Below are positions 884-53,131 of a stretch of 64,000 nucleotides of DNA, piece by piece. The DNA is from an uncultured Gammaproteobacteria bacterium (lineage in GTDB: Bacteria; Patescibacteriota; Patescibacteriia; JAHIZJ01). Below the pieces are notes generated by a model that saw only the letters and a list, made by a program, of their open reading frames with translations, was not told the origin of the DNA and ran no database searches. Both the position numbers and the translations under genes were made by a program. Each line of letters starts with the position of its first letter. Position 1 is the stretch's first letter. Where the stretch lies: positions 123,042 to 187,041 of the forward strand of contig CAYJKP010000001.1 in the NCBI GenBank assembly GCA_964371245.1, written 5' to 3'.

Positions 884-2701
884 ATGGAGCTAGCCGGCAC
901 ATCACCACAGTCCAAGACAGACGGCGCAGACAATCTCGCCGACCAGATCCTTGACGCACTCCAAAGTCAATCGCCAAAGCATGCGCTGACGCTGCTCTTC
1001 CAGCTCCAGGCGAAAGAACAAACGACGGCGCTGCCAGCCGATCTCCAGATACAGAAACAGCGCTTGCAAATCATTGCCATCCCGTTGCTCTCGGCCAACG
1101 AACTGGTTTCGATTTTTCAAAAAAATCTCCGTCCGGTGCTTGAATTCAACGTCGGCGATCGTTTGAAACGCCGCTTTGTGTCGTTACCGTTACGCGACCA
1201 GGACGAGCTGAAACAGAATATTCAGTCAGCCCTTGAATTAAACACACTCCCGTTTGTATCGGGCGTTGCATCTTCGCCGGCTGCCTGGATCGAACAATAC
1301 AACCTGCGACACGGCCAATACTCCGATTTTCTGAAAAATAACGTGGCCTATATTTCCCTGACGAAAGAAGAGCAGCTAAAGGTTGAGCGTCTCATGCGGT
1401 TGTACCAGCAGATTTCCGCGCTCTCCACGTCGCCGGCCGGGATAGAGGACGAGATGCTGGTGAAAGACGAGCAGGGGAAATTTCAGGTATTACGCGAAGG
1501 GCGCTTCATTGAACTGAACGCCGAGCCGGTTGAAACCCCACCGATACCAAGTTCGAACGTCCAACCAGTGCCGTCGAAACCAGCCATTTCATCGTCGCCA
1601 GTTGTGACGGTCCCGATTGCGCCGACGCTGCCACCACGACCGCCGGTCTTGCCCAGAACAGATCCGCAGAAGCCAACAACGCCGCCGATCACGCCGGTTC
1701 CACGGCCGATTATGCCGCAACCTCGCCCCAGCCCCGCGAGCCAAAACCCAACCGCTGATTTCTATTTTCACCGCGAAGACGAGGAAGAGGTAAACCGCTT
1801 CCGTACGCGGCTAGCTGATGCCACCACCCCATCTGGCGCAAATATCGAACAAATCGCCGATCGGTTGATCCGGGACTTCCGCTTAACCTTTGCTAATGAC
1901 GCGTTACGCTCGCGCTTTGTCAGCATAATCGTTTCCCGTTTGAAAGACGTGCGTGATTTGATTGAAACAAAGAGTATGCTCATGCGGCCGATCGAGGTCG
2001 GCGGTATCGGTCTGCCGGAAACACTCGTGATGCAGATACTCTCTCAGGTTGAGGAGGAAATACTCACCTTGCATAGCCGACCAGCCGAACCGATAAGCCA
2101 GGAAAAACCGCCCGAGCCGCTTCCCGTCAAACCGCGCGAGGAGCCAATTGCGCCGCCGGCTATTCAAACGCCGCCACCAGCCGCGCCAACAGTACCAGTG
2201 CGGCCACCGGTTCCGCCAAGATTGGATATACCGAAGCCAATGGCGGCAGTTCGGCCTACGCCAATTCCGCCGCGCCAAACGCTTACGAGCCAGCCAGCAA
2301 ACTCGGGTACGACCATCGTAAAGCGGCCTGTTGAGACAACGCGACCGGTTATGTCAGACATAAAACCGCCGGCCAAGACCGTCGGACCAGTTGAAGAAAT
2401 TTTTCGTCTGACCCCCGATGATTACCGCCGTCTCGGGAAGACGCTAGCCGAAGCAAACGATAAAATCGCTGAAAAACTCGATCTTTTGGAAGAGGATTCA
2501 TATCTCAAGCGGGCCGAGGGCGTAAAAGCTTGGAAGAAGAACGCCGTTCACCGACTCTATCTTGAAATCGGCCGGGAAAGCATGGAGCGGAATATGGCCA
2601 TATCGGACGTTATTCGTCAGCGTCAGGAAGCCAACCGTCCAACCGTAACCGAGGAGGAATTTCACGCCATCGCTGATTTAAATAAGCGGATAAGTTTCTA
2701 G
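884..2701 (+). CDS. hypothetical proline-rich protein
   Basis: Long ORF with strong coding asymmetry; only short, likely spurious antisense ORFs overlap it. Two long P/T/V-rich low-complexity tracts; no recognizable catalytic motif. Confidence 0.5.
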   Translation: MELAGTSPQSKTDGADNLADQILDALQSQSPKHALTLLFQLQAKEQTTALPADLQIQKQRLQIIAIPLLSANELVSIFQKNLRPVLEFNVGDRLKRRFVSLPLRDQDELKQNIQSALELNTLPFVSGVASSPAAWIEQYNLRHGQYSDFLKNNVAYISLTKEEQLKVERLMRLYQQISALSTSPAGIEDEMLVKDEQGKFQVLREGRFIELNAEPVETPPIPSSNVQPVPSKPAISSSPVVTVPIAPTLPPRPPVLPRTDPQKPTTPPITPVPRPIMPQPRPSPASQNPTADFYFHREDEEEVNRFRTRLADATTPSGANIEQIADRLIRDFRLTFANDALRSRFVSIIVSRLKDVRDLIETKSMLMRPIEVGGIGLPETLVMQILSQVEEEILTLHSRPAEPISQEKPPEPLPVKPREEPIAPPAIQTPPPAAPTVPVRPPVPPRLDIPKPMAAVRPTPIPPRQTLTSQPANSGTTIVKRPVETTRPVMSDIKPPAKTVGPVEEIFRLTPDDYRRLGKTLAEANDKIAEKLDLLEEDSYLKRAEGVKAWKKNAVHRLYLEIGRESMERNMAISDVIRQRQEANRPTVTEEEFHAIADLNKRISF

Positions 2702-2707
2702 GGAAGT

Positions 2708-3163
2708 ATGCCACTTCAATTCACCGTGCCACAATTTATCGATGTTGAAGACAAGATCTTTGGTCCGATCTCGGTCCGTCAATTCGTTATTATCCTAATC
2801 GGGATCGGTGTGGTCGTGATGCTGTATTTCGTGTTAACATTTACATTGTTTATCTTTGCCGCTCCGATCGCCTGCGGCGTGATCGCCATCTTTGCCTTTT
2901 TTAAGATAAATGGCCAGCATTTTCACCTTTTTCTCCTCAACGTTGCGACCACCTTCCGTCGTCCGCGCATCAAGCTTTGGCACAAACATTTAGCCGATGA
3001 CGAGATTCAAGAGGAAAAAGCGAAAGAAAAGGTCGGTTCCGAAGGCGGCGGACCGCCGAAGATTACACCGACAAAAAGTCGTCTTCGCGAACTTTCCTTG
3101 ATCGTCGACACGGGCGGAGCCTATGGCGAGGAATCCTGGCAGGTGACGCGCGATACCCGATAG
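2708..3163 (+). CDS. PrgI/VirB3-like small T4SS membrane protein
   Basis: N-terminal motif (IDVEDKIFGPISVRQFVIILIG) followed by two TM helices is typical of Gram-positive PrgI-family (VirB3-like) proteins. It sits immediately upstream of VirB4. Confidence 0.55.
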   Translation: MPLQFTVPQFIDVEDKIFGPISVRQFVIILIGIGVVVMLYFVLTFTLFIFAAPIACGVIAIFAFFKINGQHFHLFLLNVATTFRRPRIKLWHKHLADDEIQEEKAKEKVGSEGGGPPKITPTKSRLRELSLIVDTGGAYGEESWQVTRDTR

Positions 3164-3176
3164 CTAACAAACATAC

Positions 3177-3860
3177 ATGCCTACCCCACAGAACAAACAG
3201 CGTAAAAACACCCCTTCGACTCAGCGGTTCGTACCGATCGCTGAAATTAAAGACGACGCCGTGATCTTAAAAGACGGGACAATTCGAGGCGTCATCCTGG
3301 TTTCATCGATCAATTTTGCTCTGAAGTCGGAAGACGAACAAAACGCCATCATCCAGGCCTATACCCAATTTCTCAACTCATTTGAATTTCCGGTGCAGGT
3401 GGTGATTCAATCGCGGAAACTTGATATTGATGAATATCTCCAGCGGCTCGAGAAGGTCGAAAAGGAGCAGATGAACGAATTATTAAAAATGCAGACTCGC
3501 GAATACCGCCAGTTTGTAAATGAATTGATTGAATTGGCCGATATCATGAGCAAGCGTTTCTATGTCATTGTTCCGTATGCGCCGGTGACGAAAAAATCTT
3601 CAAAAAAGTTTTTTGACCGGGTTCAAGAATTATTTGCGCCCAGCCGGATTATTCAATTGAAAAAAAGCCAATTTGAAAAATACCATACCGAACTGGCCAA
3701 GCGGGTTGATTTCTTGATCAGCGGCTTGAACGCCATGGGCTTGAAGGCCGTTGGTCTCGACACGCAGAGCCTGATTGAACTGTATTACAATACGTATAAT
3801 CCAGAAACCTACGACCATCAAGAATTGGTCCAGGTTGATCGTATTCAAGTGGAGCGTTAA
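3177..3860 (+). CDS. VirB4 N-terminal domain-like protein; appears to be the detached N-terminal domain of the downstream VirB4 ATPase
   Basis: Motif 'FVPIAEIKDDAVILKDGTIRGVILVSSINFALKSEDEQNAIIQAYTQFLNSF...VQVVIQSRKLDIDEYL' resembles the N-terminal region of Gram-positive VirB4/TcpF/TraE-type ATPases. Stop TAA at 3858-3860, then one nt, then ATG of the next ORF, with GGAG 7 nt upstream. Confidence 0.5.
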   Translation: MPTPQNKQRKNTPSTQRFVPIAEIKDDAVILKDGTIRGVILVSSINFALKSEDEQNAIIQAYTQFLNSFEFPVQVVIQSRKLDIDEYLQRLEKVEKEQMNELLKMQTREYRQFVNELIELADIMSKRFYVIVPYAPVTKKSSKKFFDRVQELFAPSRIIQLKKSQFEKYHTELAKRVDFLISGLNAMGLKAVGLDTQSLIELYYNTYNPETYDHQELVQVDRIQVER

Positions 3861-3861
3861 T

Positions 3862-5787
3862 ATGGCAAACCTCGATCTCTCGAAAAAACAAGCCGTCGTA
3901 CCAGAGGCAACCCAGGCCAAGGTCATTTTAACGCCGCAACAAAAACGCGAGGCGGAGGCGTTAGCCATGGAGCGTGAGAAACGCGCGATCGAAGTAGAGC
4001 GGATCTACCGCGAAGGCGTGGTGACCATCCGAGATCTGATTGCTCCATCATCTTTCCGGGTGATGCCGTCGTACGTCGAGTTGGGCAGCAAATTTGTCCG
4101 GACGCTGTTTGTGGTGACCTACCCGCGCTACCTCACGGTCGGCTGGTTCGCGCCGATTGTCAATCTTAATTTCACGCTCGATATTGCGATGTATTTCTAT
4201 CCGATCAGCTCCGATATCATCCTGAAGCAATTACGGAACAAAGTCGGCGCGCTCGAAGCGCAAATTATGGCCGACGCCGAAAAGGGAGCGGCGCGCGATC
4301 CGATGCGGGAGACCGCCCTGCGCGACATTGAAAAATTGCGCGATGATCTGACGCAAGGGACAGAGAAGTTCTTTCAATTTTCCCTCTACATGACGCTGTA
4401 TGCGGATTCACTCAAGGAATTAAATGAATTGACGGATCGAGTCGAAGGCATGCTCGGTTCGCGCCTCGTCTATTCGAAGCGGGTGTTTTACCAGGCGGAA
4501 CAGGGCTATAATTCCACCCTGCCCATGGCGATCGATGAGATCAATGTGACCTTTAACATGAACACCTCGCCGGCCGCCTCGTCCTTCCCGTTTATTTCGT
4601 CCGAGCTGACGAGCGACAACGGAATTCTCTACGGCATCAACCGCCACAATAACAGCTTGATCTTATTTGACCGCTTCAGTCTTCAGAACGCCAATTCGTG
4701 CGTTTTTGCGACCTCAGGCGCTGGCAAAAGTTACGCGGTCAAGCTCGAAGTGCTCCGCAGCCTGATGCTTGGAACGGACGTTATCATTATTGACCCAGAA
4801 AAGGAATATAAGTATCTCTGCGACGCCGTCGGCGGAGCCTACGTCAACATCTATCTCAACTCGGACTCAAAGATAAATCCGTTTGATTTACCGAGACCGG
4901 TCGGGGAAGCCGATCGACCGGCCGATATCATCCGTTCGGCCGTGATCACCTTAAAAGGGCTGCTTCGCTTGATGCTCGGCGAATTTACGCACGAGGAAGA
5001 TTCGCTCGTCGACCGGGCACTGATCGAAACCTACGCCAAGAAAGACATCACAGCCGATTCCGACCTAACGAAAATCGAGGCGCCGCTTATGTCCGATTTC
5101 GAAGAGGTGCTCGGTGGCATGGAGGGCGGTGACGGGTTGGTCAAGCGGCTGAAGAAATTCACCGAGGGAACGTTTGCCGGCTTGTTCAACAGCCCGACGA
5201 ACATCGACGTGAAAAACCAGCTAGTTGTGTTCAGCGTGCGGGACCTTGAGGATGAGCTGCGTCCGATCGCCATTTACACCATCGTCAATTATATCTGGAA
5301 CGTTGTCCGGTCGGAAATGAAGAAACGGATTATGGTCATCGATGAGGCGTGGTGGCTAATGCAGAACGAAGATTCAGCCAAATTCATCTACGCACTGGTC
5401 AAGCGCTGCCGCAAATATTATCTCGGGGTGACGACGATCACGCAGGATGTCAACGACTTCTTGCGATCACCGTATGGCCAGGCCATTGTCACGAACTCGT
5501 CATTGCAGCTTTTACTCAAACAGTCGCCGGCTGGTGTCGATATTTTGGCGAAAACATTCTTGCTGACGGAAGGCGAAAAATATTTGCTGCTGGAAAGTGG
5601 GGTTGGCGAGGGGATATTCTTTGCCGGTTCCCGCCATGCCGCCATAAAAGTTGTTGCCTCGTACACGGAAGATCAAATCATTACCTCGGATCCAAAGCAG
5701 CTGCTCGAGATAGAAGCCGCGAAGAAGGAGTTTGCCGAATCGATGGCCCAAGAGGAAGACGTAAAGTCAGCCGCACCAAAACCATAA
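3862..5787 (+). CDS. virB4: VirB4/TraE-family T4SS ATPase (AAA-like, DUF87-type), C-terminal two-thirds
   Basis: 'RDLIAPSSFRVMPSYVELGSKFVRTLFVVTYPRYLTVGWFAPIVNL' is the conserved Gram-positive VirB4 segment. Walker A FATSGAGKSYAV, Walker B VIDEAWWLM, and 'TQDVNDF' are present. The ORF-track start at 3775 is an upstream extension; ATG 3862 with an RBS is preferred. Confidence 0.8.
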   Translation: MANLDLSKKQAVVPEATQAKVILTPQQKREAEALAMEREKRAIEVERIYREGVVTIRDLIAPSSFRVMPSYVELGSKFVRTLFVVTYPRYLTVGWFAPIVNLNFTLDIAMYFYPISSDIILKQLRNKVGALEAQIMADAEKGAARDPMRETALRDIEKLRDDLTQGTEKFFQFSLYMTLYADSLKELNELTDRVEGMLGSRLVYSKRVFYQAEQGYNSTLPMAIDEINVTFNMNTSPAASSFPFISSELTSDNGILYGINRHNNSLILFDRFSLQNANSCVFATSGAGKSYAVKLEVLRSLMLGTDVIIIDPEKEYKYLCDAVGGAYVNIYLNSDSKINPFDLPRPVGEADRPADIIRSAVITLKGLLRLMLGEFTHEEDSLVDRALIETYAKKDITADSDLTKIEAPLMSDFEEVLGGMEGGDGLVKRLKKFTEGTFAGLFNSPTNIDVKNQLVVFSVRDLEDELRPIAIYTIVNYIWNVVRSEMKKRIMVIDEAWWLMQNEDSAKFIYALVKRCRKYYLGVTTITQDVNDFLRSPYGQAIVTNSSLQLLLKQSPAGVDILAKTFLLTEGEKYLLLESGVGEGIFFAGSRHAAIKVVASYTEDQIITSDPKQLLEIEAAKKEFAESMAQEEDVKSAAPKP

Positions 5788-5816
5788 ATAACTACGTTGG
5801 TTAAAAATATTATCGT

Positions 5817-6455
5817 ATGAAAGGGTTCCGTATTCTCATCATCGTGCTTGGAGGGCTGGCCGTTCTCGCCGCCGCGGCGTTGGTGATTTTGCGATTGACG
5901 CAAAAACCGACCAATTCTAATACCAATACGAATACGCCGGTAAATAATGCAGTGGTGAATACGACGAACGAAAATACCAACACGTCGAATACAAATACAA
6001 ATACGAATACGGCGAACACCAACGCAAATACAAATACGGTTCCGAGTAATACGAATACAAACACCGGGAGTACACCCGAAGCGAATCTCAAAGGGGTCGC
6101 GCGAAGTTTTGCCGAGCGCTTCGGCACCTATTCAAACCATTCGGACTTTGAAAACATCGAGCACTTGATACCGTATATGAGCGAACGGATGAAAAAATGG
6201 GCGCAAAAGTATCTCGATGAGCAACGGGAAAAAACCGTCGATCAAAGCGTCTATTATGGCATGATTACTCGGACCATGTCGGTCAAGCAGACCAGCTACG
6301 ATTCTGACAATGGCACGGCTGAATTTCTGGTCACGGCGCAACGAAACGAATCGACCGGTACAAGCTCAAACTCAAGGATATTTTACCAAGACCTCCAGAT
6401 AAAATTTATTAAAGAGCAGTCGGTTTGGAAAGTAAACGAAGCCTGGTGGCAGTAA
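5817..6455 (+). CDS. membrane-anchored protein with Asn-Thr tandem-repeat linker and ~130-aa C-terminal domain (speculatively VirB8/NTF2-like)
   Basis: N-terminal TM (ILIIVLGGLAVLAAAALVIL), (NT)n repeats encoded by aatacgaatac-type DNA repeats, then a globular domain. Located inside the T4SS-like module. Confidence 0.5.
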   Translation: MKGFRILIIVLGGLAVLAAAALVILRLTQKPTNSNTNTNTPVNNAVVNTTNENTNTSNTNTNTNTANTNANTNTVPSNTNTNTGSTPEANLKGVARSFAERFGTYSNHSDFENIEHLIPYMSERMKKWAQKYLDEQREKTVDQSVYYGMITRTMSVKQTSYDSDNGTAEFLVTAQRNESTGTSSNSRIFYQDLQIKFIKEQSVWKVNEAWWQ

Positions 6456-6464
6456 CGGGTTGAT

Positions 6465-7181
6465 ATGGCTACGAATGGTAACAATTTTGATAACGCGCTA
6501 GGGAAATCAAAGGAGAAACAACGCGAATTGGACGATCGAACCGGTCGTTCAAAATCGAGTCAAGAAGCGCTCGATCGTCAGCTGGGACAAGATCCGAAAT
6601 CTTGGCACGATCAGCAAATTCGGCAGGGTAAAGACACGCACACAAAAGACCGATTAGCCGGTTCGATGGGCAGTTCAATCGGCGACGTCAATCAGCCGCG
6701 CGGCATTCGCGGACGGGTGACTGACAAGATGGATCGATCGATACAGGATTTTGACGCTCGTCAGGGTGTTGCTGGCGCAGCCGGAGAACGGTCGGCCGCG
6801 AAACAGCTTGGCGGTGCAAAAGCCGCTGCCATGAAAAAAGCAGCCGAAGGAGGAAGTGCTGAAGAAGTCGGCGAAGCGGCCGGCGCCGCCGCCCTGCAAG
6901 CGAAAAAAATACAGCAATTCCGGATACTCCTGATGGTTTTAAAAGGAGTCAAAATCGGCGCCGCAGCAACGGTGGTGGGGATAATCATCACGATCCTTAT
7001 CTGGGTGGCTCAGGTAATCCTCTCAAAGGTCTTTGGCAAAAAAGAGTTTGAACTCGATTTGTGGGAAAAAATAATTGCCTATCCAATTTGTTTTATTATT
7101 TTGGTCTTCGTGGTAACGCAAATTGCGGTTCTTGTCCAAGCCCTTGGCTTAGTAAGCAGTGTCGTTGATTGGATCTTCTAA
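6465..7181 (+). CDS. hypothetical membrane protein (Gly/Ala/Lys-rich N-terminal region, two C-terminal TM helices)
   Basis: ORF with two hydrophobic C-terminal helices (IGAAATVVGIIITILIWVAQVIL; IIAYPICFIILVFVVTQIAVLV). Confidence 0.45.
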   Translation: MATNGNNFDNALGKSKEKQRELDDRTGRSKSSQEALDRQLGQDPKSWHDQQIRQGKDTHTKDRLAGSMGSSIGDVNQPRGIRGRVTDKMDRSIQDFDARQGVAGAAGERSAAKQLGGAKAAAMKKAAEGGSAEEVGEAAGAAALQAKKIQQFRILLMVLKGVKIGAAATVVGIIITILIWVAQVILSKVFGKKEFELDLWEKIIAYPICFIILVFVVTQIAVLVQALGLVSSVVDWIF

Positions 7182-7208
7182 TCCCACACGGGCGTCCGCG
7201 ATGATTAC

Positions 7209-8342
7209 GTGTCAGCGAAAAAGATGTGGTATAATATAGCTATGAATAACACGGCAATAAAAAGACATAATCAGGTTCAACGGTGGTTTGGCATCCTGAT
7301 GTTGATATCGTTATTGACCGTCGCGGTGGCTATGTTTATGGCGCCGCGAGTAGCATATGGTCTAGTTCCAGATGCGGACGCTTGTGGCAAGGGCAAGGTA
7401 AAACTGAATGTTAAGCTCGGCACGACTGAGTGTATTTCTGACATTACCCAGTATACGAAGATTTTTTACAATCTCTTTATCGGGGTCATCGGCATCTTCG
7501 CTGCGGTTATGATTATGTATGCCGGTTTTCAATGGATTTCCGCCTCCGGGAATTCCCAAAAAATTGAACGGGCCAAAGACAGTTTTACGTCGGCCATTAT
7601 TGGTGTTGTGATTGCGCTCATTTCGTACGTTTTGTTGAATTTGATCAATCCTATGATCGTCAACCTGCAGCCAATCGCCCTGGAGACGATTACCGGGCAG
7701 GCGACCGTCGCGAACATGGAGCTCTGTAAAAACATGCTCGGCGATAATTGGTCGCAGCAGGTGATCAGCCCAAACGCCAGTTGCGGCGAGCCGAACAATT
7801 TAAAGGACGCGCAGGGTAAGCCGACGGGCGGTATATGTTATGGCCACGAATGCGGATCTGGCACCCAGTGCTTCAATAAAGCTGGCGTCTGGAAGTGCGA
7901 CTCACCGTATAAAAAATGTACAGATGCAAAAAAGGACCAATGCGCGGCGGTTGACACGATGCTTGAGGATCGAACGTATGGCTGTATCCAAAACACCACT
8001 GGCACGGGTGATGAAGATAAGTGTATCTATGGTCCGATCATCCCCTTAATCATCGGGCAGGGGACTGTCGGTGTCGCGCCAAACATTTATGAGCGAATTC
8101 GCTGCGAAGATTCACCTGAGAGGGACTGCTGGAAAGTAAGTGGTTCGGGAGCGACGCCAACGAAATGCGTTGATGCTGGTTTATATGGAGATTATTTTTG
8201 CACGAACTCTGAGCGGGCGGTTCAATGGGGGCAATCAGTCTGTGTTCATAAGGTTGGCAGCGACCCGCCGGAATATTACCTTTGGACTGGCGCCGCGCAA
8301 GGGGACGATATCGCCCCGGGTTTGTGTTCATCCACCCAATGA
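7209..8342 (+). CDS. VirB2/TrbC-like T4SS pilin-like protein fused to a ~230-aa cysteine-rich C-terminal domain
   Basis: Signal/TM segment, then two hydrophobic helices separated by a short polar loop (IFYNLFIGVIGIFAAVMIMYAGFQWISASGNSQKIERAKDSFTSAIIGVVIALISYVLLNLINP), typical of VirB2/TrbC pilins. Then ~26 Cys in the C-terminal extension. Confidence 0.5.
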   Translation: MSAKKMWYNIAMNNTAIKRHNQVQRWFGILMLISLLTVAVAMFMAPRVAYGLVPDADACGKGKVKLNVKLGTTECISDITQYTKIFYNLFIGVIGIFAAVMIMYAGFQWISASGNSQKIERAKDSFTSAIIGVVIALISYVLLNLINPMIVNLQPIALETITGQATVANMELCKNMLGDNWSQQVISPNASCGEPNNLKDAQGKPTGGICYGHECGSGTQCFNKAGVWKCDSPYKKCTDAKKDQCAAVDTMLEDRTYGCIQNTTGTGDEDKCIYGPIIPLIIGQGTVGVAPNIYERIRCEDSPERDCWKVSGSGATPTKCVDAGLYGDYFCTNSERAVQWGQSVCVHKVGSDPPEYYLWTGAAQGDDIAPGLCSSTQ

Positions 8343-9589
8343 TACACTCACCACAAACAAAAAAAATCCTGATTATCGCCGGCCTGGCGGTCGTTGTATT
8401 GGTCGTCGGCTTCGCCATCTATTTTTTCTTTTTCCGATCAATTTTTGAACCGACGGGCAATGGAAACACAAATGGCAATACCAACAACACCAACGACCTT
8501 AATCGTTTACCCAACATTAACGGTAATCGGAACGTAAACGTCAACACGAACGGAAACACGAACAGCGTGTCGACCCTGCCGGACATCTCTGATGTGGCGG
8601 ACGGTGGTCCGACGAAGGTTACCCCGATCATCAACAGCCGAACAAAAGACGGCGCGCCGACAAGCGATGGAACTGGCTATGTGTACTATGATCCGGCCAC
8701 GTACAAGTTTTACAAAGTACTGGCAAACGGCGAACGCGTCGAAATATCCTCAAAAGAGTTCTATGACGTTCAGAGCATTGCTTGGTCGCCTGATCGGCAG
8801 CGGGCCATCCTCAAGTATCCAGACGGCAGTAATTTGTATTACAACTTCAGCGACGGCCTCTCCGTGACGCTGCCAAAAGAAATACAGGAGCCGGAGTTTA
8901 CGGCAACTGGCAATAAAATCGCCTATAAATTTATTGGCGAACAAGAAGGACAACAATGGCTGGCAGTCTCAAACCCAGACGGCAGCGAACAGCAATTGCT
9001 TCAAGCGCTTGGCGACCGCGCCTCCCGCGTCGACGTCAACTGGTCGCCCGACGGCCAGGTGGCGGGTATTTATCGGGAGGGTACCGGCCTTGATGAAGAG
9101 GAAATATACTTTATCGGCCAGCATGGGGAAAATTTCAAATCCTTCACGGCCAAAGGCTCTGGGTTTACCAGCGCCTGGTCACCGCAAGGCGATAAACTCC
9201 TTTATAGCGTCTATAGCGCCGAGACTGATTATAAACCGACGTTAAGCATTGTTGACGCGCGCGGTGACGCGGTAGGGCTCAATAATACCGCTTTAGATCT
9301 AAACACCTGGCCGGATAAATGCACCTTCGGCGGTACCGCCCTGTATTGTGCCGTTCCGACCGATCTGGCGACCGGCGCCGGCTTATCGCGAGATAGCGCC
9401 GTCATGGCCAACGACAATTTCTACAGCATTGACCTTGCGACCGGACAGAAAACACTCCTCGCGATTCCGTACAACGGACCCGATGATATCGGGTATAGCG
9501 CAGATGGGTTGTATTTGTCGCCCGGCGAAGACGCCTTATATTTTCATAATGCGAAAAACGACAAGCTTGAAAAAATAACGCTCAAATAA
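8339..9589 (+). CDS. membrane-anchored TolB-like (PD40/WD40-like) beta-propeller repeat protein with Asn-Gly/Asn-Thr repeat linker
   Basis: Start overlaps the previous stop (ATGA). TM helix (ILIIAGLAVVVLVVGFAIYFFFF), N-rich repeats, and repeated 'WSPDGQ/WSPDRQ/WSPQGD' motifs. Confidence 0.6.
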   Translation: MIHSPQTKKILIIAGLAVVVLVVGFAIYFFFFRSIFEPTGNGNTNGNTNNTNDLNRLPNINGNRNVNVNTNGNTNSVSTLPDISDVADGGPTKVTPIINSRTKDGAPTSDGTGYVYYDPATYKFYKVLANGERVEISSKEFYDVQSIAWSPDRQRAILKYPDGSNLYYNFSDGLSVTLPKEIQEPEFTATGNKIAYKFIGEQEGQQWLAVSNPDGSEQQLLQALGDRASRVDVNWSPDGQVAGIYREGTGLDEEEIYFIGQHGENFKSFTAKGSGFTSAWSPQGDKLLYSVYSAETDYKPTLSIVDARGDAVGLNNTALDLNTWPDKCTFGGTALYCAVPTDLATGAGLSRDSAVMANDNFYSIDLATGQKTLLAIPYNGPDDIGYSADGLYLSPGEDALYFHNAKNDKLEKITLK

Positions 9590-9590
9590 T

Positions 9591-10334
9591 ATGGCTGAGA
9601 AAAAGGTAACGACCGCCCCAAAAACGAAAACCATCGTTATTGTTGTTATTGGACTGCTGGCTTTTCTCGGTTTTCTTTTTGCCTTGATCATGACCCGGTC
9701 AACAATGAACTCAATCTCGCGGCGACTGAACACGAAGGTGGTCTACGAAGGCGTCTCAGATCCGGTTGACCAGTCACAAGATGTTTTGGTAACCGCCGCG
9801 AATAAAGAAGTGAGCGGGACGCCGGAAATCCGTGACACCGATCCGGTCTTAGGAACCGCGGCTCCAAAAATCACCATCATCGAATTTGCCAGTTTCGGAT
9901 CCGGCTATTCAGCAGCGGCTCAGCCAATCGTTCAACAAATCATGGACAATTATGGCAGCGAGGTGAAGCTTGTTTTCAAGGATTATTTTAGCCAGTCTGA
10001 TGCAATGGCGAGCTTGGGAGCGAAGGCGGCTCGCTGCGCTCAAGCCCAAAACAAGTTCTGGGAGATGGAGAAACAGATTTTTCAGACCACGGATGGATTT
10101 GGGAAGTCAGACCTCGTTGATATCGCAAAAAAAATCGGGTTAACCGAAGACGCCTTCACCGCTTGCCTCGACAAAACAGAAACCGATTCCGCCGTCAGCC
10201 AGAATATCAGCGATGGCATTGAGCTTCACCTGTCCGCCGTTCCGACGTTTTTTGTCGACGACAAGGTGCTAACCGGCATCGTGACGTATGACGAATTTGA
10301 GGCACTGGTCATACAAGAACTCGAAGGAAAATAA
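9591..10334 (+). CDS. DsbA-like thioredoxin-fold protein with degenerate active site (CxxC replaced by SFGSGYS)
   Basis: N-terminal TM, then DsbA-like layout (…ITIIEFASFGSGYSAAAQP…KFWEMEKQIF…VPTFFVDDKVL). No Cys at the position where the paralog at 14987-15730 has CPAC. Confidence 0.55.
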   Translation: MAEKKVTTAPKTKTIVIVVIGLLAFLGFLFALIMTRSTMNSISRRLNTKVVYEGVSDPVDQSQDVLVTAANKEVSGTPEIRDTDPVLGTAAPKITIIEFASFGSGYSAAAQPIVQQIMDNYGSEVKLVFKDYFSQSDAMASLGAKAARCAQAQNKFWEMEKQIFQTTDGFGKSDLVDIAKKIGLTEDAFTACLDKTETDSAVSQNISDGIELHLSAVPTFFVDDKVLTGIVTYDEFEALVIQELEGK

Positions 10335-14986: not shown

Positions 14987-15730
14987 TTAGGTCGGATTTT
15001 TATCGACCGCTTGCTGCAGTGCTTGTTTCAGCTGTCCATAGGTCGAAAATGGTTCCAGAAACTTCCCGTTGAGATAATAGGTGGGCGTGCCATTAATTGG
15101 GATGCGCTCGCCGGCCAGGACGGCGTCAGAAATGATTTTCTTAATGGCGTCAGACGCATAATCGCTCAGGAATTGTGTTTTATCGAGATTGAGCGACTCG
15201 GTGTACTGGGCAAACGTATTTGCCGGATCATCAAGCTCTGACCACTCGGCTTGTTTTTCAAACAAGACATCGTGCATCTCCCAAAACTTCCCCTGTTTGC
15301 CGGCGGCTTCGGCTGCCCAGGCGGCCGGCTTCGCGTTTGGGTGCATGGTCAGGGGGAAGTGACGAAAGACGAAAGCGACACGATCACCAAACTCAGTTTC
15401 GGCCTGTTTCACGAACAGGTACCGGGCGGAGCACGCCGGACATTGAAAATCGCTGTATTCGATTAAGACAACTTTTGAATCGTTTTTACCTCTGACCCAG
15501 TCGCCGCCGGCAACGGCGTCAAGCGGTAATTTTGGCATTTTGGCCGCGCTTTTGCTGCCCAGCCAGAAGATGCCGAATATGACAAGCGCTCCAGCGACGC
15601 CGATAACACTCCAAAGCAATATTTTATTACGGCGCTGTTTGCCGACTTGTTGTTCGCTGCGTTCGGCTTTTTCCTGCCGGCGCAATTCGCGCCGTTCCCT
15701 TTTGGTCAGGTTTTTGTTTAGTTCATCCAT
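14987..15730 (-). CDS. dsbA: DsbA-family thiol:disulfide oxidoreductase (intact CPAC active site), membrane-anchored
   Basis: N-terminal TM, then 'LIEYSDFQCPACSARY', 'GKFWEMHD', 'INGTPTYYLNGKF' (cis-Pro loop region). Confidence 0.75.
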   Translation of the reverse strand: MDELNKNLTKRERRELRRQEKAERSEQQVGKQRRNKILLWSVIGVAGALVIFGIFWLGSKSAAKMPKLPLDAVAGGDWVRGKNDSKVVLIEYSDFQCPACSARYLFVKQAETEFGDRVAFVFRHFPLTMHPNAKPAAWAAEAAGKQGKFWEMHDVLFEKQAEWSELDDPANTFAQYTESLNLDKTQFLSDYASDAIKKIISDAVLAGERIPINGTPTYYLNGKFLEPFSTYGQLKQALQQAVDKNPT

Positions 15731-15797
15731 ATCGCAACACCTTGTTGATTAAATTAATTATCCTGGCGGAGGAGAGAGGATTCGCCCAGCACCAGGG

Positions 15798-15884
15798 CGG
15801 AGGGGGTGAGATTCGAACTCACGGTACCTTTGCAGGTACAACGGTTTTCAAGACCGTCCCTTTAAACCGCTCAGGCACCCCTCC
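15798..15884 (-). tRNA. tRNA-Ser (anticodon TGA), long variable arm, CCA not encoded
   Basis: Reverse complement GGAGGGGTGCCTGAGCGGTTTAAAGGGACGGTCTTGAAAACCGTTGTACCTGCAAAGGTACCGTGAGTTCGAATCTCACCCCCTCCG; anticodon loop CTTGAAA. Confidence 0.8.
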
Positions 15885-15890
15885 GCTCTC

Positions 15891-15937
15891 GGTGCTGGGT
15901 TCAAGACTGCCCCGTTCAACCACTCCGGCACTCCTCC
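15891..15937 (-). pseudogene. tRNA-Ser-like 5' half remnant (acceptor + D-arm only)
   Basis: Reverse complement GGAGGAGTGCCGGAGTGGTTGAACGGGGCAGTCTTGAACCCAGCACC: Ser-type acceptor/D-arm but no foldable anticodon or T arm. It abuts tRNA-Ser(TGA). Confidence 0.3.
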
Positions 15938-15957
15938 AGAAGAGGGTGGTAAATCAT

Positions 15958-15978
15958 TGGCGGAGAGTGCAGGATTCG
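15958..15978 (-). repeat. 21-nt exact duplicate of the 3' end of tRNA-Ser(GCT) (copy at 16115-16135)
   Basis: tggcggagagtgcaggattcg occurs at 15958 and again at 16115, the latter as part of the intact tRNA. The copies diverge immediately after. Confidence 0.6.
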
Positions 15979-16114
15979 TGTCCGGGGCAGCGACGTATGC
16001 TCTCGCTGGTCGCATCCGTCGGCGCTCCCTTCGTCTCACTCCGTTCGCTCTGATCGCTTCTGTCCTTCTCATCCTGCCATTATTTTTTATCCGCTGCCGC
16101 TTCGCTCCAGCTTT

Positions 16115-16204
16115 TGGCGGAGAGTGCAGGATTCGAACCTGCGAGGGACCTTACGGTCCCATGGTTTAGCAAACCATTGCCTTAAGCCACTCGGCCAACT
16201 CTCC
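16115..16204 (-). tRNA. tRNA-Ser (anticodon GCT), CCA encoded
   Basis: Reverse complement GGAGAGTTGGCCGAGTGGCTTAAGGCAATGGTTTGCTAAACCATGGGACCGTAAGGTCCCTCGCAGGTTCGAATCCTGCACTCTCCGCCA. Confidence 0.85.
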
Positions 16205-16313
16205 GTGTTAGTTGTTGTCAAACTTCTTCGTTATTTAGGATTGTGAAAAAGCTACTTTACCTCGGTCTCCCTTCGGGAGATCCCCCGTAGGGGGACCAAC
16301 TCTCCGTATCATA

Positions 16314-17054
16314 TTACTGTTTTGATCGGGCAAACACGACACCCCAGACTTTTCCGGCGCCAGCCTTACGAAGCGTCTGGGCGCAGGCCTCAAGCGTGGC
16401 GAGCGTTGTGGCCACATCATCAATAAGTATAACGGTTTGACCAGATATGACAACCCCTCGTTTGACCCGGATGGCGGCCGTCAGATTGGCTAAACGTTCA
16501 GCGCGCGCCAACTGAGCTTGCGGGCTCGTATAATAGGCGCGGCTGAGTATATCAGTTCGTACGGGCCAGTCAAGCGCCTGTCCAAAAGCCCTGGCGATCG
16601 TCTCGGCTTGATTAAAGCCACGTTCGTTTTTTCGTTGCCAATGAAGGGGGATCGGGATTACAACCGGTTTTTGATTGGCTGTGTCAATGGCCAGCCGCTG
16701 CGTTGTTATGGCCGAGGCGATCTCTTGTCCGAGGGACACGCCAAGTTCTTCAATGAACCGGTATTTCAGGGCGTGAACGCAGGTTTGGATAAGAGGTTGT
16801 TGATAATCAGCCCGGACGAATAAACCAGCAAGCGAAGTTTTATGCGAGCAATCAGGACAGGTCAAGTACGACGCTTGCGGCCGGCGACATACGGGGCACT
16901 CAGGCTGGGGGATAGGTCCGATGCGTTTTCGGCAGTCGTCGCACAGCCAACGGTCGTAACGGCCACACCCGCCGACGCAGCGGATCGGGAAAATGCAATC
17001 GAGAACGAGTTGCCAATAACGCCGAAGTGTTTTCGCGTACATAAAAAGGCGCAT
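16314..17054 (-). CDS. comFC: ComF family protein (competence protein ComFC; double zinc-ribbon + phosphoribosyltransferase-like domain)
   Basis: N-terminal CxxC...CxxC pairs (CPVCRRP, CPDCSH), C-terminal PRTase-like 'VILIDDVATTLATL'. Confidence 0.75.
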   Translation of the reverse strand: MRLFMYAKTLRRYWQLVLDCIFPIRCVGGCGRYDRWLCDDCRKRIGPIPQPECPVCRRPQASYLTCPDCSHKTSLAGLFVRADYQQPLIQTCVHALKYRFIEELGVSLGQEIASAITTQRLAIDTANQKPVVIPIPLHWQRKNERGFNQAETIARAFGQALDWPVRTDILSRAYYTSPQAQLARAERLANLTAAIRVKRGVVISGQTVILIDDVATTLATLEACAQTLRKAGAGKVWGVVFARSKQ

Positions 17055-52579: not shown

Positions 52580-53131
52580 ATGGCCAAACTACGCATTAAG
52601 CCAACCAGCGGTATTGTCATTCTTCTCCTGTTAGCCTTCGGGGGAGGGTATGGAATTTATGCCATGGCGAGCGCGACTGACCAAACGCAATTCGGCCTGC
52701 GGGTGATAAATCGGAATATTTCTGCCAATAAGAACGCCTCGGGCGAAGCAAATACCTATGTGAATTCCCAATATGGCATTGAACTGGCACGGCCGGCCGA
52801 CTGGAACGCGGTTGAAACGACGCCGGTTGGTCTAGCTGAGGCAATGTTGACGGTGACGCTCACGGATCCGCTATCAACGGAGCGAATGATTTTTTCAATT
52901 TTCCAACCGTCCATGAAAGAGACGCTGCGGAATTCACTCAGCATTGAAAGCGAGGGAACGGCCTTGCTCGGTACACTCGCGGCTGATAAATGGGTCGGTG
53001 AAGACCAAAAGGATGGCTCCCCAGTGACTATCATCACCGCCGAATCCAACGGGCGCCTCTATGAGGTTACAAGCTATGCGTCAGAAAGCACGCTTGACAG
53101 TTTTCTGTCAGCGTTTAAGATAGTACAATAG
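52580..53131 (+). CDS. hypothetical secreted/membrane-anchored protein inserted between fusA and tuf
   Basis: RBS AGGAGG; N-terminal TM/signal (IVILLLLAFGGGYGIYAMA); 183 aa. Confidence 0.5.
   Translation: MAKLRIKPTSGIVILLLLAFGGGYGIYAMASATDQTQFGLRVINRNISANKNASGEANTYVNSQYGIELARPADWNAVETTPVGLAEAMLTVTLTDPLSTERMIFSIFQPSMKETLRNSLSIESEGTALLGTLAADKWVGEDQKDGSPVTIITAESNGRLYEVTSYASESTLDSFLSAFKIVQ

Follow-up and report, generated by a model that had tools for sequence, protein, structure and literature searches.

Partial copies of tRNA genes are usually read as footprints of large integrase-carrying elements. The identity block of the integrases that target tRNA genes has been described in general terms (10.1101/2020.12.28.424599, PMC9897764). 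Two further kinds of arrangement that involve tRNA genes have been described: phage T4 SegB is a freestanding GIY-YIG homing endonuclease in a tRNA gene cluster (PMC2330249), and disrupted tRNA genes that contain introns or are split or permuted are found in archaea and red algae (PMC4390854). Here we analyzed a tRNA-Ser locus in a stretch of 64,000 nucleotides (nt) (the window; GCA_964371245.1, contig CAYJKP010000001.1, positions 123,042 to 187,041), a segment of the chromosome of a bacterium of the Patescibacteria, or candidate phyla radiation (CPR), whose top protein matches are Patescibacteria metagenome-assembled genomes. The most interesting element of this locus is a 115-nt cassette that holds a complete tRNA-Ser(UGA) gene and lies inside the remains of an older one, and a tRNA-only cassette overwriting a resident gene would be an unusual mode of tRNA gene replacement. 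We think it reasonably probable that the locus as a whole records tRNA-targeted DNA insertion and replacement at its two tRNA-Ser genes, such that the inner tRNAs are the working genes and the fragments around them are the ends of earlier residents. In the literature, we found no description of nested tRNA-in-tRNA cassettes or of GIY-YIG genes beside tRNA genes in Patescibacteria.

By both ARAGORN and Rfam, the region holds exactly two intact tRNA-Ser genes, each on the minus strand: tRNA-Ser(GCU) at 16115-16204, with its CCA encoded (59.6 bits with the Rfam tRNA model), and tRNA-Ser(UGA) at 15798-15884 (58.8 bits; the ARAGORN bounds are 15795-15885). No third tRNA or known RNA family was found in the gap by ARAGORN or by Rfam at gathering and permissive thresholds over 15700-16400. 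Each intact gene stands between an older 5' stub and an older 3' stub. For the UGA gene, alignment places the 5' stub at 15900-15937 (minus strand). These 38 nt comprise the acceptor stem, D-arm, and 5' anticodon arm (nt 1-37) of the resident gene, begin with the acceptor strand GGAGGAG, end in the anticodon loop at CTTGAA, and are 82% identical to the intact UGA tRNA. The UGA 3' stub, CGAATCCTCTCTCCTCCGCCA (15764-15784, minus strand), is a 21-nt member of repeat family D2 that runs from the T-loop CGAAT to CCA, and its acceptor strand CTCCTCC pairs at 7 of 7 positions with the GGAGGAG of the 5' stub. For the GCU gene, the 22-nt repeat TTGGCGGAGAGTGCAGGATTCG occurs exactly twice, at 16114-16135 in and just past the tRNA and at 15957-15978, where it forms a 3' stub on the minus strand that starts at the T-loop CGAAT and ends one A past CCA; none of 100 shuffles matched it, even with 3 mismatches. 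The 12-nt repeat CCAACTCTCCGT likewise occurs exactly at 16195-16206 and 16296-16307, with two matches in none of 100 shuffles, and the outer copy is the GCU 5' stub ACGGAGAGTTGG (16296-16307, minus strand), which reproduces the 2 nt upstream of the tRNA and tRNA nt 1 to 10. Since the UGA 3' stub pairs perfectly with the half tRNA, both tRNA-Ser genes are nested within old stubs. The intact tRNA-Ser(UGA) is followed after its discriminator by CCC (15795-15797), so CCA is not encoded there; CCA is encoded in tRNA-Ser(GCU) and in the 3' stub of the overwritten UGA gene.

An earlier note on this DNA, made from the sequence and its open reading frames, had listed several of these pieces, and all of them are present. 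Both intact tRNAs were placed as ARAGORN and Rfam place them; the exact 21-nt copy of the GCU 3' end exists and is in fact 22 nt long; and the "aactctccg" fragment is borne out as part of the 12-nt repeat. The half tRNA given as 15891-15937 is real, but it reaches the anticodon loop and spans 15900-15937, and 15891-15899 is not tRNA but the left inverted repeat of the cassette. Two hairpins were also correctly seen but were called downstream, whereas in the direction of the tRNA genes they lie upstream. The list lacked the 21-nt UGA 3' stub, and a third functional tRNA, which the note had envisaged as a possible explanation of the 21-mer, is not found by ARAGORN or by the covariance models.

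The UGA cassette occupies 15785-15899 on the minus strand, as delimited by ARAGORN, Rfam, and comparison, and consists of a left arm CCCAGCACCgagagc (15885-15899), the tRNA, and a right arm cccTGGTGCTGGG (15785-15797). Its terminal inverted repeats, CCCAGCACC and GGTGCTGGG, are complementary at 9 of 9 positions, and the arms pair with each other in the minimum free energy fold, extending the acceptor stem of the inner tRNA. The cassette stands in place of positions 38 to 55 of the resident tRNA, leaving nt 1 to 37 and nt 56 to 76 as stubs, and both junctions are located in cloverleaf loops. Upstream of the resident gene is a native 19-nt linker (15938-15956, minus strand), orthologous to the sequence upstream of the uninterrupted tRNA of the sister genome, L009. 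The arm motif occurs at the cassette alone in the 64-kb window, and the tRNA-Arg and tRNA-Pro genes of the window have neither stubs nor a leader-trailer helix.

Relatives from about six lineages in all were examined; the sole additions from scans of genome contigs and of metagenome contigs were L155, which is a strain of the L004 species, and L160, which is the same as L006. Among these relatives are two comparisons of an empty with a filled site. At the orthologous position, the sister genome (ClpC 96% identical, flanking DNA 88%) has a tRNA-Ser(UGA) without interruption, with the linker of the window before it and GCCAG.ATAAT after it, again as in the window. The window 5' stub aligns with the 5' half of this plain tRNA, and the 3' stub is orthologous to its 3' end. 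The second pair, L155 and L004, comes from another lineage and is cleaner. Upstream, these strains share 96.3% identity over 5.4 kb and, downstream, 99.1% over 1.3 kb. They differ in structure at one point only: L155 carries a plain tRNA-Ser(UGA), and in L004 114 nt stand in for its 31 central nt AACCGTTGTACCTGCAAAGGTACCGTGAGTT (positions 38 to 55). The L004 stubs are identical to the ends of the L155 tRNA, and the incoming piece is made of CCCAGCACCgag(gt), a different complete tRNA-Ser(UGA), and ccCTGGTGCTGGG. The window shares the arms and both junctions with L004; the outer gene and the inner tRNA both differ from those of L004. These two comparisons show that in the UGA unit the core of a resident gene was replaced by a tRNA-only cassette, and overwriting of this kind has happened at least once very recently. 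With plain alleles in close relatives, the UGA arrangement reflects gene replacement, not a processing pathway.

The same cassette architecture is present in four cases: the window, L004, L006, and L162. The window, L004, and L162 have identical junctions, one following CTTGAA and the other preceding CGAAT, and L006 carries the cassette with decayed stubs. In L162 the arms are CCCCGCACC and GGTGCGGGG, with one A-T pair changed to a compensated C-G pair; across the four flanking helices, 7 of the 9 pairs are invariant, and there is one A-U to C-G swap. Within the four cassette tRNAs, 98.6% of the stem cells are paired and there are 9 compensated pairs, which indicates that all four are working tRNAs. 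A related layout is found in two more distant genomes, L008 and L164. Together with the four cassettes, it shows that nesting of tRNA-Ser(UGA) recurs within the clade.

In L008 (8146-8440) and L164 (4861-5130) the nested tRNA-Ser(UGA) is of a second style: a 5' half ending in CTTG is followed by a helix-flanked intact tRNA, then by about 40 to 50 nt, and then by an orphan 3' half that shares an identical variable arm with the intact tRNA. The dead tRNA copy in L008 bears extra hairpins in its D-loop and T-loop. A plain tRNA-Ser(GCU) in L162 (2493-2602) is flanked by an 11-bp inverted repeat (CAGTCCAGAGC and GCTCTGGACTG) that extends the acceptor stem, and leader-trailer helices of a similar kind flank other tRNA-Ser genes of the clade (L155, L008, and L164).

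We also observed disagreements between the relatedness of these pieces and that of their hosts. The inner UGA tRNA of the window is about 2 nt from the native L155 tRNA, while ClpC is only 70% identical. Similarly, the UGA 3' stub of the window is identical to the L162 stub at 21 of 21 positions, while ComF is 52% identical; the same stub differs at 3 positions from the tRNA of the sister genome. The nested allele may therefore be one that travels between lineages with its tRNA arms. These bacteria carry DNA-uptake genes, and the most likely route would be DNA uptake followed by recombination via the conserved tRNA arms. At the UGA gene, a promoter-less 115-nt unit (a 9-bp arm, a complete tRNA, and the complementary arm) would have replaced positions 38 to 55 of the resident and would be read from the promoter of the old gene, and the leader-trailer helix could allow folding and processing of the inner tRNA in the face of competition from the stubs. 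Nothing convincing in the way of promoter or terminator signals was found in the intergenic region. A phage origin was considered and rejected: when viral contigs were scanned twice, with motifs of the junctions or the spacer, chance matches in GC-rich coding sequence were all that appeared.

These comparisons also bear on an explanation that involves no foreign DNA, in which slippage made tandem duplications of the tRNA-Ser genes and subsequent deletions left partial copies. It is true that all of the fragments are derived from tRNA-Ser and adjoin their parent genes. However, many positions distinguish the inner UGA sequence from the outer one, a compensated acceptor pair among them, and the inner one matches the native tRNA of another lineage. 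L155 and L004 show a one-step replacement by a different tRNA allele with new flanks. Moreover, at the GCU gene a protein-coding gene and an unrelated 136-nt segment lie inside the supposed duplications, and the alignment of this spacer to the tRNA body gives p = 0.27 to 1.0. We consider local duplication and decay very improbable, as the L155/L004 pair and the comparison of inner with outer UGA sequences contradict it.

The GCU gene bears a different unit on each side. On its 5' side, a 30-nt double-hairpin module, TCCCCCTACGGGGGA plus TCTCCCGAAGGGAGA (16266-16295, minus strand; two 15-nt hairpins at 16266-16280 and 16281-16295), is inserted in the D-stem of the 5' stub, as judged from the sequence and its homologues. 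Direct reading shows that the stub continues after the module with CCGAG (tRNA nt 11 to 15; 16261-16265, minus strand), a layout shared with L002 and L163. Between this stub and the tRNA, by-eye alignment to L002 identifies 16207-16260 (minus strand) as what is left of a GIY-YIG nuclease gene, namely its 5' leader and final codons; about 215 nt of the open reading frame are deleted. The same GCU 5' stub is found in L002, L004/L155, and L163, and in L002, L004, L155, and L163 an intact open reading frame for an 81-amino-acid GIY-YIG protein lies between the hairpin-bearing stub and the tRNA. Thus, the 5' duplication (12 plus 5 nt) surrounds a gap that holds a GIY-YIG gene, decayed in the window. 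By tblastn there is no GIY-YIG gene at the window locus; the sole match in the window is a spurious one of 14 residues at 53024-53065 (E = 0.51). The whole 5' unit is absent in L161, L162, and L006, and L161, which lacks it, has a ComF 67 to 71% identical to those of the window and L002. The GIY-YIG protein is a bare catalytic domain. It matches UPF0213 and the catalytic domain of I-TevI only weakly (E = 1.6e-3 for the latter), and its TIGR01453 score is below the cutoff. The upstream part of the GCU locus would be the footprint of a homing-type nuclease cassette, with the nuclease as its putative driver.

The hairpin modules of L004, L163, and L008 are homologous to that of the window, and their stems are kept perfect by compensatory changes through several substitutions. 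In L008 the module sits in the D-loop of a UGA-type stub. Among the CPR loci scanned together with the window, no module was found outside tRNA-Ser 5' stubs. We rejected the idea that the hairpins belong to a dispersed family resembling repetitive extragenic palindromes (REP), given that the tandem module is unique in the window and confined to tRNA-Ser stubs in those loci. In L163 (972-1001, compared with 16266-16295 in the window) the double-hairpin module is inverted as a block at the same insertion point, TTGG|CCGAG; hairpin 1 of L163 is the reverse complement of hairpin 2 of the window, and hairpin 2 of L163 resembles the reverse complement of hairpin 1 of the window.

On the 3' side, a purine-rich insert of 136 nt (15979-16114, minus strand) separates tRNA-Ser(GCU) from the copy of its 3' end. 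The insert has no Rfam family and no open reading frame, and it has homologues only in L004/L155 and L006. The 3' unit, that is, the insert with its 21- to 23-nt copy, thus occurs in the window, L004/L155, and L006; the sister genome, L162, L008, and L164 lack it. In the three lineages that have it, the insert is 130 to 138 nt long and forms one unit with the 21-mer. The window insert is 83% identical to that of L006 and 68% identical to that of L004, whereas the host ClpC identities run in the opposite order, 58% and 70%. This patchy distribution, at odds with host relatedness, suggests movement, and the 136-nt insert with its 22-nt duplicate may be a miniature or decayed integrative unit. 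L162, L008, L164, and L002 are without the insert, yet none of them offers a clean empty site. We rejected the insert as a decayed tRNA copy: its local alignment to the tRNA body is no better than that of shuffles (p = 0.27 to 1.0). The insert is strongly purine-rich on the tRNA strand. It opens with GCTGGAGCGAAGC, which is similar to the right junction of the UGA cassette, GCTGGGCGAATC, perhaps by coincidence.

The 3' unit is also where a classical integrase scar would be sought. In such an account, a tyrosine- or serine-integrase element entered the 3' end of tRNA-Ser(GCU) and duplicated the block from the T-loop to CCA as attL and attR; it then decayed to 136 nt, or is a cis-mobilizable mini-element moved by an integrase acting in trans, and the UGA fragments are similar relics. 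The 22-nt exact repeat, running from the T-loop to 1 nt past CCA, is the usual identity block of tRNA integrases, and the patchiness of the insert would fit as well. In addition, the closest relative has an island in exactly the same intergenic space. This island of 18.2 kb lies between the two tRNA-Ser genes of the sister genome (from L005 11177 to L009 9764, on one 364-kb contig, ena:ERZ27247363:k141_1409060). Its genes, some of them phage-like, code for a large serine recombinase, an N6/N4 methyltransferase, a SWI2/SNF2 helicase, a DUF2779 protein, a ParB-methyltransferase, and a terminase-like helix-turn-helix protein. Its position marks the spacer between the tRNA-Ser genes as an insertion hot spot. 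However, the island (in L002/L009) is bounded by the repeat CCGACCCACGTG[G/C]CTCAAA, which starts 19 nt past the tRNA, and not by the 21-mer; a degenerate fragment resembling a tRNA 3' end lies at its far side. In the window, Pfam scans of neighboring open reading frames found housekeeping genes only, with no recombinase or integrase within about 10 kb on either side. Independent decay would not be expected to yield a near-constant insert length in three distant lineages. The 5' duplication encloses a GIY-YIG gene. Finally, the UGA site has no direct repeat: there a central segment is replaced, and the stubs differ from the inner tRNA. Thus, the 21-mer is at most a candidate integrase att repeat, and we regard the integrase scar as unlikely. 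The earlier note had proposed just such scars of integration and excision at tRNA-Ser. Its view of the fragments as leftovers of insertion at a hot spot fits the serine-recombinase island of the closest relative, but a simple attL/attR pair does not fit the evidence on recombinases and repeats. Nor is its half tRNA an att remnant of an excised element; as the two empty/filled comparisons show, it is the 5' end of the resident UGA gene, the core of which was replaced. Of the checks it had proposed, the search for an integrase next to a tRNA-Ser found none near the window locus but did find the recombinase of the sister island, and the alignment to relatives revealed an island between the tRNA-Ser genes, though one bounded by another repeat.

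The folding and conservation of these pieces bear on a further explanation, in which the stubs, hairpins, and 136-nt segment are maintained parts of a tRNA-Ser precursor or of a tRNA-like noncoding RNA; for example, the segment and the 3' copy could mimic an acceptor/T-arm helix ending in CCA, and the hairpins could serve as terminators or insulators. The 21-mer is perfect in three lineages and covaries with the tRNA in L006, and the hairpin stems stay perfectly paired through their substitutions. RNAalifold pairs the spacer GGCAGGAT with ATCCTGC of the copy (with one compensated position, G-C, A-U) and GCGGxAG with CTCCGC, and, compared with shuffles, the regions are better folded (z = -3.9 and z = -4.1). 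However, pieces derived from tRNA are expected to fold well anyway, and in the alifold model, which covers three sequences only, four pairs are broken against one or two that are compensated. No Rfam family matches. Furthermore, the 3' unit is wholly absent from the closest relative, L162, L008, and L164; the UGA stubs are decayed or truncated in L006 and L162; and near-identical strains carry plain alleles. A function for the fragments as RNA is, in our judgment, quite unlikely.

Several observations weigh against our reading of the locus as insertion and replacement at both tRNA-Ser genes. Its evidence base is about six lineages, and both large sequence scans yielded almost nothing further. 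No recombinase or transposase is associated with the cassette, and arms of 38 nt and 21 nt are very short for RecA-type recombination. The L004 stubs are of the recipient's own type, such that a foreign transfer mediated by the arms would need further assumptions. The GIY-YIG protein lacks a DNA-binding domain. The GIY-YIG proteins are just 40% identical, yet the 12-nt 5' stub and the hairpins have stayed conserved, with changes that compensate each other, and the GCU 3' copy is perfect in three lineages and in L006 shares a C-to-T change in the T-stem with the tRNA itself. The conserved stub and hairpins and the matching 3' copy look like the products of selection or concerted evolution, not like inert scars. 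For the GCU 3' piece the cause may equally be recurrent re-creation, concerted evolution, or function.

A bolder reading goes further. A family of promoter-less, helix-bounded tRNA-Ser units could spread among Patescibacteria by overwriting the resident gene from within and becoming its sole, indispensable copy. Such a unit would be a selfish or addictive element without a recombinase of its own, perhaps aided by the small GIY-YIG nuclease or by DNA uptake. We put this forward tentatively and think it possible but doubtful.

The locus lies between a ComF-family gene (16314-17054) and a DsbA-like gene (14987-15730), and all of its features are on the minus strand. In the 5'-to-3' direction of that strand, the order is ComF, the GCU 5' stub with its double hairpin, the small-gene remnant, tRNA-Ser(GCU), the 136-nt insert, the GCU 3' stub, the 19-nt linker, the UGA 5' stub, CCCAGCACCgagagc, tRNA-Ser(UGA), cccTGGTGCTGGG, the UGA 3' stub, and DsbA. 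Farther out are ClpC, HtpX, and LemA on one side and DUF5673, tRNA-Arg, PAP2, and RecG on the other. A 660-nt region covering the locus is 100% identical in 7 further full-length contigs of the same species, which were separately assembled, and an eighth contig (L001) that ends inside the region is identical over its 462 nt. Thus, the arrangement is not an assembly artifact, and no polymorphism within the species was seen at the locus among the 7 full-length contigs and the overlapping part of L001. In L001, a low-coverage contig, ClpC is called as two open reading frames (205 and 601 amino acids; 1493-3979) instead of one of 828 amino acids, probably owing to a sequencing frameshift. Elsewhere in the window, 3775-10334 holds a type IV secretion-like cluster (a TraG/VirB4-type P-loop ATPase and a type IV secretion system pilin domain protein) followed by a second DsbA-like paralogue, and a homologous cluster is present in the sister genome (L009 15526-20744).

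What arrives at the UGA gene is little beyond a tRNA gene, and it takes the place of the resident core, with its boundaries at fixed positions in two loops. This replacement is seen in several deeply diverged ultrasmall bacteria. Should it prove general, tRNA genes in reduced genomes, which usually have one gene per tRNA, would have a new way of turning over and of moving horizontally. That would also call for caution in annotating such stubs as attachment sites or pseudogenes, and the cassettes would be natural material for studying how so short a piece inserts without an obvious recombinase.

Each of the known systems with which we compared the locus failed at least one of the defining features tested. 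Integrative elements, including tycheposons, integrative and conjugative elements, prophages, and integrase-less cis-mobilizable elements, resemble it in that a direct repeat of the tRNA 3' end starts at the T-loop, the tRNA is intact on one side, the unit is patchy among relatives, and a recombinase island occupies the same hot spot in the sister genome. Unlike them, the locus in the window has no integrase, an insert of just 136 nt and of conserved length, and 5' stubs as well, and in the UGA case the core of the gene is replaced by another complete tRNA with no duplication. Homing endonucleases of the T4 SegB type are similar in having a GIY-YIG gene beside or within tRNA genes that is polymorphic in presence among relatives, and decay of the nuclease gene, as in the window, is expected late in a homing cycle. 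However, the protein here has 81 amino acids and a catalytic domain only, its gene is flanked by a duplicated tRNA 5' end with a double hairpin, and it belongs to a bacterial chromosome rather than a phage.

Disrupted tRNA genes share with the UGA unit an insert that begins at the canonical 37/38 position of the anticodon loop and has complementary ends, like the leader and trailer of split halves. However, the outer pieces (nt 1 to 37 and nt 56 to 76) cannot rebuild a tRNA, as positions 38 to 55 are missing, and the insert is a complete tRNA in its own right; when 15700-16400 was scanned permissively with Rfam, the two tRNAs were the only matches, with no self-splicing ribozyme core in the insert. 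REP sequences and bacterial interspersed mosaic elements (BIMEs) resemble the 30-nt double hairpin, which occurs in both orientations like REP doublets, but this module is seen in tRNA-Ser stubs only and is not dispersed. Finally, miniature inverted-repeat transposable elements are, like the cassette, small (115 nt in this case), with terminal inverted repeats (9 bp here). The cassette differs from them in that it makes no target-site duplication and instead removes 31 nt of the target, in that it is present in a single copy per locus, and in that its cargo is a tRNA of an essential type.

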